This document shows, piece by piece, positions 1-2,775 of a stretch of DNA of 2,775 nt (positions are counted from its first letter, which is position 1; every line of letters starts with the position of its first letter). This DNA comes from Naegleria gruberi (lineage: Eukaryota). The notes under the pieces were generated by a model. It searched no databases. It was not told where the DNA came from and was given only the letters and a program-made list of their open reading frames with translations. A program made the position numbers and the translations under genes. The DNA lies in the NCBI GenBank assembly GCA_000004985.1, contig GG739245.1. One strand, given 5' to 3'.

Positions 1-1087
1 CAATTTGAGTAGTAGACTTGTAATTAGTGATTCCTTCGATAGTTACAAATAGTCCATGAATGGTTTCTTGAATATTAGTGAATTTTGTTTGTTTCAATTT
101 TGAACCTTCTTGGTGTTGGCTCATTAATTCTTCTACAGTCAATGTCTGAAATAAATCAACACTTTTGTCTTTGTTAATATTGTAAAATTGTAATGTTTTT
201 CCATCATGTGAAATACAGGAAGCTAATATTGGTTGACAAATTGAAATTCTCTTAAAAAAATAACCATTAAAAGTGATATCATTCTTTTCAATATTTGAAA
301 TCAATTGAGCAACAACTTGAATCTCTGTCTTTCCATTTCTAATATCGGCTTCATCTCCATTCAACACAATCTCTTTCAAAATTGTTTCGGTTTTGTAATC
401 ATACACTACATACACATTCCTAAATCTCAATACCATACTATTTGCGAGAAAAATCAATGAATCACATCTTTTAGATTCAAATTTCTCCAAATTAAATCTT
501 TTTTCAAAAGATAGAAATAAAAAAGTCACTGGTAATTTTCTGTAAACTGTAAATCGAAATTCCTTTCCCCAAACAATACAAAAAGAATCGTCTAAACTTT
601 GTAAAGGAATTCTTCTTGTACAAGAAATCAATTCTCCTGTTTCTTTCTTTTGGAAAATGGAATTTCTTTCCTTTAGTGTAAAATCCAAATCAGATCCAGT
701 CTTCTGGAATGCGTTACCCTCAAATTTAATTGTCAGCTCTTTTCCTAAAGCTGAAAAACTGTATGAAAAGAGTTGCACAATAGAATTCGCACCTTCACCT
801 TGTAAACTTTTATCAATTACTGTTGAGTAATGAACAAGCAACATTCCTTTTTCTTCATGACATTCAATTTTTTGAATGGAACAAGTTTCGGGTGAATTTT
901 CTTGGAATAAATGTTGGTGGTGAAAAACTTCACTCCGATCATAGTGAAACCACAAAATAATTCCCATATTTGTTCCACAAATAACTTGCTGATATTTTGA
1001 ATCAAAGGTTGAACAAGTAATCGAGCCATGTTGTGCGGAATCAAAGTGAAAACATTGGCAAGTTTTCATTAGTGGACCTGATGTCAT
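1..1087 (-). CDS. 3'-truncated protein-coding gene (N-terminal 362 codons; ORF continues past position 1); hypothetical protein, possibly WD-like/beta-propeller N-terminus
   Basis: I reverse-complemented 1..1090 by hand. The frame whose first codon bases fall at p mod 3 = 1 has an ATG at 1087..1085, preceded by an in-frame TAA at 1093..1091. It has no stop down to position 2; every TTA/CTA/TCA on the plus strand falls out of frame. The start context is gtaaaaaATGa (A at -3, A-rich). Codon use is Caenorhabditis-like: Gly is GGA in 12 of 19 codons, Arg is mostly AGA, Pro is mostly CCA, and Gln is mostly CAA. The protein starts MTSGPLMKTCQCFHFDSAQHGSITCSTFDSKYQQVICGTNMGIILWFHYD... A 362-codon stop-free run is very unlikely by chance in DNA this AT-rich. 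The supplied ORF track missed it, apparently because it only lists ORFs with both ends inside the window. Function is not recognised. Confidence 0.72.
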   Translation of the reverse strand, partial: MTSGPLMKTCQCFHFDSAQHGSITCSTFDSKYQQVICGTNMGIILWFHYDRSEVFHHQHLFQENSPETCSIQKIECHEEKGMLLVHYSTVIDKSLQGEGANSIVQLFSYSFSALGKELTIKFEGNAFQKTGSDLDFTLKERNSIFQKKETGELISCTRRIPLQSLDDSFCIVWGKEFRFTVYRKLPVTFLFLSFEKRFNLEKFESKRCDSLIFLANSMVLRFRNVYVVYDYKTETILKEIVLNGDEADIRNGKTEIQVVAQLISNIEKNDITFNGYFFKRISICQPILASCISHDGKTLQFYNINKDKSVDLFQTLTVEELMSQHQEGSKLKQTKFTNIQETIHGLFVTIEGITNYKSTTQI

Positions 1088-2427: not shown

Positions 2428-2472
2428 TTTCTTTTTGACTTTTCCGGAAGTCTAATGAATCTTAATAACTTA

Positions 2473-2775
2473 CTGTTTTTCACAATAAAAAAATAATGGA
2501 GAAATACGGGGTGGATTCACCGTCATTTCATGTAAACCACAGCAGCCAAGACTCCAAGTTTGCAATTTCGATAATGGCTGAAAATGCAAAAAATCAAAGA
2601 ACCGAAGAAGGGAATTTAAAATCACTAATTTTTGAAAAAGACGCGTCTTCGAGTCTGTGCTTATGCCATCGTTTATCTTTCTTAGGTCCAAGATAAACCT
2701 GTATTCGGCTGAACCTTTCTTTGGGACAACGTTGATAGGATTTAGAACTGGATTTAAAGAATAGGTTATAATTGG
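2473..2775 (-). mobile_element. degenerate reverse-transcriptase fragment (LTR-retrotransposon/retrovirus-type pol, RT domains 1-3), relic; runs off right window edge
   Basis: The minus-strand frame p mod 3 = 0 is open from 2775 to the TAA at 2472..2470. Its translation is [101 protein letters not shown]. [28 protein letters not shown] matches the conserved RT domain-1 pattern, as in [35 protein letters not shown] sits where LDLxSGYHQ is expected. [18 protein letters not shown] sits where KTAFxTxxGxYEFxVMPFGLxNAP is expected, with the MPFGL block deleted. Local GC is higher than in the flanks. The deletions, substitutions and terminal stop make it a nonfunctional relic. These comparisons are against motifs recalled from memory, not a database search. 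Confidence 0.55.
2474..2577 (-). other. candidate 104-nt exon (exonised segment of the RT relic) bracketed by a canonical nematode 3' splice site TTTTCAG and 5' splice site GTAAGTT
   Basis: On the minus strand, TTTTCAG is at 2584..2578 and GTAAGTT at 2473..2467. The intervening 104 nt are open in the RT-like frame. Each 7-mer is expected about 0.6 times per window by chance, so this is weak evidence. Confidence 0.2.

Follow-up and report, generated by a model that had tools for sequence, protein, structure and literature searches.

What kind of element, if any, left the open frame that reaches the right edge of the stretch of DNA analysed here (the window, 2775 bp, ~31% G+C), and how much of that element is still present? 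The frame comprises 101 codons on the minus strand (2775..2473) and is closed by a TAA at 2472..2470; an adjoining element bounded by terminal inverted repeats (the TIR element) has its right terminus 16 nt away. A first-pass annotation of the window had taken this frame for a relic of reverse transcriptase (RT), and several of its claims are revisited below together with the results that bear on them.

The translation of 2775..2473 carries the RT domain-1 motif as the first-pass annotation had quoted it, and a search for RT similarity gave a clear result: among 1.84 billion representative proteins, HMMER found four matches, all of them RT proteins, with E-values from 2.1e-10 to 1.1e-5 and identities of 63-71%. 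All four span query residues 2-50 and stop there, and the matched proteins have the complete RT motif series (KIDLKKGYFHVPI, LPFGLSTAPR and FIYIDDIL). At the DNA level, positions 2654-2773 are 81.7% identical over 120 nt to positions 863-982 of the metagenome contig L004 (blastn; the E-value of 8e-29 was computed in a small database of fetched loci). When the pol proteins of two relatives, L002 and L004, were aligned to the window by tblastn, both matched 2772-2623, where 51 aa align with 65-69% identity (E 1.8e-13 and 2.7e-17). A family profile made from four relatives aligned residues 2-43 at 58.6 bits, and the alignment of residues 1-43 to P0003 scored 142, against 24.6 ± 4.0 for shuffled sequences. 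By HMMER, blastn, tblastn and the family profile, the RT-homologous segment occupies 2623..2775 on the minus strand and belongs to a retrotransposon pol ORF; measured by homology to RT it is ~43-50 codons long, with a best-conserved core at 2647-2775 and similarity that fades across 2623-2646, where one codon is deleted. Its content is the end of the pre-RT region and RT domain 1 (fingers), including the beta-hairpin of the fingers subdomain (PKKGSxxYRxxxDLRxxN), with nothing further of RT. Aligned to HIV-1 RT, this hairpin carries the Lys and Arg that we take to contact the dNTP (in HIV-1 RT, K65 and R72).

The break in RT homology, at ~2623-2647, is abrupt. The DNA alignment shows good identity to ~2650, then a 3-nt deletion, fading similarity to ~2620 and nothing beyond. 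Remnants of RT domains 2 and 3 had been described in the remainder of the frame, which the comparisons do not bear out: residues 44-101 received no score from the family profile, and their local alignment to downstream RT sequence scored 24, where shuffles gave 25.4 ± 4.5. The deletion of the MPFGL block reported at first pass is real in that the block is missing, and it understates the loss, as everything past the end of domain 1 is absent. Catalytic Asp motifs (the domain 3 Asp and YxDD) were not found in the window, the homology ending ahead of RT domain 2. Searches elsewhere in the window for gag, RT domains 2-7, RNase H, MT and the tyrosine recombinase (YR) gave only noise (tblastn, E<=50), the matches being YR 82-131 on the wrong strand (E 0.04) and YR 28-63 in the tail of the frame (E 0.16). 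That tail, 50 open codons in frame at 2473..2622 (minus strand), has no detected homology to RT or to other parts of the element, and it ends in the TAA at 2472..2470, as had been stated. Reading the DNA with alternative genetic codes (4, 6, 10, 15 and others) lengthened some frames and gained no homology. Between the break and the TIR element lie 168 nt (2455-2622) with no match in the window or in related loci, and the slightly larger region 2455-2660 showed no similarity to the remainder of the window. The stretch 2455-2622 may hold a clue to how the retrotransposon copy became truncated.

On the opposite strand, the ORF list contains a frame of 66 codons (plus strand, 2496..2696), which had been judged an antisense by-product and probably spurious. 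We agree that it is probably not a gene: Pfam gave no match for it, the gene collection lists no such product, and its tblastx similarity to the relatives is confined to the part that mirrors RT-homologous DNA.

The part of pol that was retained is in good condition. The residues that the family conserves in this stretch (NP..-VPKKG....R.ILDLR.IN.G) are all kept in the window copy, and many codons differ from those of the relatives synonymously only; over 43 conserved codons, the differences at first, second and third positions number 12/7/28 against L005, 13/8/23 against L001 and 6/8/15 against L004. Because the homology halts abruptly, the rest of the element is missing and the conserved residues are all kept, the copy is, judged by its sequence, truncated and not degenerate, as it had been called: a well-preserved piece that was cut off, perhaps by deletion or rearrangement. 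The description of the frame as an old, inactivated RT relic accordingly holds for an inactive RT remnant and not for its age, which third-position-biased substitutions do not demonstrate. At its other end the segment is cut by the right edge of the window, and homology is present from the first codons there; the element therefore probably runs on to the right, where we would place gag and the N-terminus of pol.

The class of the element has to be read from its relatives, which come solely from metagenome and Logan assemblies; 11 loci were fetched, one of which, L011, was added by a metagenome scan for related loci. They share a layout of a gag-like ORF, a pol ORF of ~600-670 codons and a third ORF that extensively overlaps the pol frame (in L002 this third frame is open for 901 codons), and these three ORFs fill compact units of ~4.0-4.1 kb. 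The pol of L002 matches Pfam RVT_1 at E 9.5e-20 (71.6 bits, cut-off 29.6), and the window fragment aligns to the start of that domain. The relatives' pol has the catalytic motif FIYIDDIL and matches the RNase-H-like family RVT_3 weakly. The L002 pol also matches the Dam-like family PF05869 at E 7e-5, with 23 bits under a cut-off of 28.1, and this match recurs: weakly in L007-L009, and as a precomputed assignment for P0011, P0012, P0015, P0031, P0051 and P0061. The third ORF encodes a tyrosine recombinase: the L008 frame at 3-890 matches Phage_integrase with 43.9 bits (cut-off 27.1). L007 and L010 likewise have this family listed for their YR genes and L005 has it as a weak match, and it appeared sub-threshold at E 3e-5 in the Pfam run that gave the RVT_1 score above. 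Neither a protease nor a DDE integrase was found in the relatives, whose sole Pfam matches are RVT_1, the Dam-like family, RVT_3 (weak) and Phage_integrase, and there is no room for either because the units span just ~4.0-4.1 kb. The closest named proteins to the family are uncharacterised animal proteins at ~29% identity. The nearest relative, L004 (82% DNA identity; 453-2385), is itself damaged, with pol spread across three frames and unrelated upstream sequence in place of most of gag; fragmentary copies are therefore typical of the family.

The ends of these units are informative as well. L007 has identical 30-nt ends (1-30 and 4098-4127) and thus a period of 4097 bp, as in a circle-like contig, and L008 and L009 are circular permutations in the order YR, 138 nt, gag, pol (seen at 3-1028 in L008); in the relatives just ~130-140 nt separate the YR and gag ORFs. 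L006 contains a direct repeat that is 97% identical (61-306 and 4079-4324) and begins sharply at TGTTC (61 and 4079), with unrelated sequence upstream of its first copy. No inverted terminal repeats (ITRs) were found in L003, L005-L008 or L010, contigs that are short and whose termini may be incomplete. As far as the contigs allow a reading, these features suggest that the family's termini are split or direct repeats, tandem copies or circular forms, unlike the ITRs and internal complementary region (ICR) of DIRS1.

Retrotransposons with a tyrosine recombinase encode gag, RT-RNase H (with a Dam-like MT in DIRS) and YR, without a protease or a DDE integrase (PMC3783388; PMC3266345), and their genomic copies are mostly truncated (PMC3783388; PMC3266345; PMC7192593). 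The relatives resemble the DIRS order (DIRS1-like and PAT-like elements; type DIRS-1 of Dictyostelium discoideum) in having a gag ORF, in combining a Ty3/gypsy-like RT with RNase H and a candidate Dam-like MT (a recurrent but sub-threshold match) in pol, and in the overlap of the tyrosine recombinase frame with pol; like that order, they are under 6 kb, have neither protease nor DDE integrase, and occur in many truncated copies (PMC3266345; PMC3783388). They differ from DIRS1 in that neither ITRs nor an internal complementary region was found in them, the repeats of L006 and L007 looking more like the split-direct-repeat (A...B-A-B) arrangement that PAT and Ngaro have, or like tandem copies; and for the DIRS order they are unusually compact, at ~4.0-4.1 kb with ~130-140 nt from YR to gag. 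Ngaro elements share gag, RT/RNase H and YR with the relatives, and their A-pol-B-A-B direct repeats would collapse into circular assemblies like L007 and L006. However, Ngaro has no Dam-like MT (PMC3783388), whereas the relatives repeatedly give weak matches to PF05869. Against all of these systems, the fragment in the window has RT domain 1 alone. We therefore assign a probability of roughly 0.85 to the reading of ~2623-2775 (minus strand) as the remnant of a 3'-truncated pol ORF from a tyrosine-recombinase retrotransposon of the DIRS order, whose host genome is AT-rich and probably eukaryotic, an assignment that runs through identities of 63-71% over 35-50 residues, and of 82% over 120 nt of DNA, to relatives from other samples, since the DIRS-defining parts (YR, MT and termini) are seen in those relatives and not within the fragment itself.

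Four other readings were weighed against this one. A chance resemblance of AT-rich DNA to RT motifs could be argued from the searches that came back empty. Pfam RVT_1, the check proposed at first pass, matched none of the 101-, 57- and 42-residue pieces even at E<=10; a word-index protein search with the fragment gave zero candidates; and phmmer with the full 101 residues had no match among PDB sequences. The 42-residue N-terminal piece did retrieve four PDB sequences at E<=10, with E-values that singly are only 0.25-1.8. The Pfam result reflects length and not unrelatedness: the L002 match covers model positions 1-203 of 205 (residues 135-297), of which the window holds the equivalent of residues 135-170 only, so that merely ~36 residues of a 205-position model remain. 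The four PDB sequences are all RTs, each matched at the homologous place in the fingers (HIV-1 RT 56-84, Ty3 RT 93-127, MMLV RT 69-99 and 70-100), and in 20,000 Markov-1 random windows an RT-motif regular expression occurred four times in its loose form (4/20,000) and never in its strict form (0/20,000). With an E-value of 2.1e-10 among 1.84 billion proteins, 82% DNA identity across 120 nt, a profile match of 58.6 bits and an alignment score of 142 far outside the shuffled distribution, coincidence is already refuted, and we give it next to no weight. A practical lesson is that an RT remnant of 45 residues, missed by Pfam and by word-indexed searches, was caught by an exhaustive HMMER scan. 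The first-pass annotation, for its part, had assigned the frame to an LTR-retrotransposon or retrovirus-like pol. The fingers motif (PKK.G..R...D.R.LN) and overall RT similarity are indeed common to this family, Ty3/gypsy and the retroviruses, and among solved structures the family pol matches Ty3 RT best (E 6.6e-19); the DIRS RT is, however, itself related to that of Ty3/gypsy (PMC3266345). Ty3/gypsy elements and retroviruses have a protease, a DDE integrase and LTRs, whereas the family here has a tyrosine recombinase and neither of those enzymes; no LTR or long direct repeat was seen in the window, and units of ~4.0-4.1 kb would be too small for protease or DDE integrase. Because the relatives with context encode gag, RT/RNase H with a putative Dam-like MT domain and an overlapping YR, we place the element in the DIRS order, and an LTR or retroviral origin appears improbable.

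The two remaining alternatives accept the homology and dispute what became of it. The element might not be truncated at all: an intron or nested insertion could separate this piece from the rest of pol, and the copy might be intact. Nested insertions do occur at the locus, given the 748-bp TIR element 16 nt past the stop, and an in-frame 48-nt candidate intron of the form GT...CAG can be drawn at ~2575-2622. Excising that candidate, however, does not bring back RT sequence, and past the TIR element no RT continuation is seen: 1090-1706, together with the whole remaining window, has no RT, RNase H, MT, YR or gag match, and 2-1087 is taken up by an unrelated 362-codon ORF. The sole collinear second tblastx HSP, at 2138-2052, proved to be noise, being out of frame in the relatives. 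An intact copy is in our estimate very unlikely. Slightly less credible again is an expressed chimeric or domesticated gene made of the RT fingers and a novel tail, for which one could cite the 101 open codons and the selectively preserved look of the RT part. Third-position bias is, however, equally expected from the divergence of active elements before truncation, 50 more open codons would arise by chance at p 0.03-0.10 given the composition, and the tail found no homologue among 1.84 billion proteins.

As a truncated DIRS-order remnant, the window copy cannot polymerise or transpose, because it is missing the recombinase, the MT-like domain, RNase H and the catalytic Asp motifs, YIDD among them, and we predict no function for it. 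It is an ordinary dead transposon remnant, which shows that DNA at the right edge of the window derives from a transposon and matters mainly for annotation; it also hints at a eukaryotic source with DIRS-type elements. An intact element of the family would be transcribed, its own RT/RNase H would make cDNA from the transcript, and the tyrosine recombinase, not a DDE integrase, would insert that cDNA; this scheme is drawn from gene content and follows what is known from work on DIRS-1, an element that needs its ICR and whose cDNA intermediates are for the most part linear, single-stranded molecules (PMC7192593).

Judging by the relatives, environmental eukaryotes appear to carry a compact clade of tyrosine-recombinase retrotransposons that has yet to be named and that would be of no more than mild interest to transposon taxonomists. 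A more ambitious proposal, which we put forward tentatively and at somewhat less than even odds, is that the fragment and its metagenome-only relatives represent an undescribed DIRS-order lineage in an AT-rich eukaryote host, unusually compact (~4.0-4.1 kb) and with direct-repeat, tandem or circular instead of ITR/ICR termini. If this is true, the window would be the first genomic anchor for the host, with the fragment still a dead remnant.

The TIR element next to the frame, 748 bp at 1707-2454, has perfect 15-nt termini (TAGACTTCCGGAAAA) that contain the palindrome TTCCGGAA and carry a TA dinucleotide at each outer end, where, alternatively, the outermost TA may represent a TA target-site duplication. 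The arms are imperfect and extend over ~120-180 nt (1793-1889 and 2425-2332 are identical at 69 of 84 positions); positions 2408-2423 form a perfect 16-nt palindrome, AAAAAGGCGCCTTTTT, and the left arm holds a degenerate, partly duplicated version of it at ~1769-1808. The element showed no coding or protein-family match and no similarity to the retrotransposon family, and it looks like the remnant of a MITE-type DNA transposon. Its inverted repeats were also considered as DIRS ITRs, a reading that we rejected: they have no similarity to the relatives, they lie downstream of unrelated sequence, and the relatives leave just ~130-140 nt between YR and gag. Inside the element, plus frame 3 is free of stops for 179 codons (1899-2435), a Phe/Leu-rich stretch of low complexity that is probably a side effect of the strand being T-rich, not a gene; a 131-residue ORF at 2043-2438 matches DNApol_Exo at E 0.059 with 13 bits, far under the Pfam cut-off of 26.7.

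Rfam and tRNA scans of the window found nothing, and a scan for sigma-70 promoters gave no more sites than shuffled sequence. Exact 40-mer scans of viral, metagenome and prokaryotic genome collections, and a blastn against phages, were likewise negative; this absence from prokaryotic and viral collections, together with a long non-coding stretch and an orphan gene, suggests that the source is a eukaryote. The 362-codon ORF mentioned above (MTSGPLMKTCQCFHFD...; minus strand, 1087..2) runs off the left edge of the window. It has no homologue in an index of 5.8 billion proteins and no Pfam family, and is possibly a lineage-specific host gene; its residues 287-313 weakly resemble residues 44-70 of ubiquitin.
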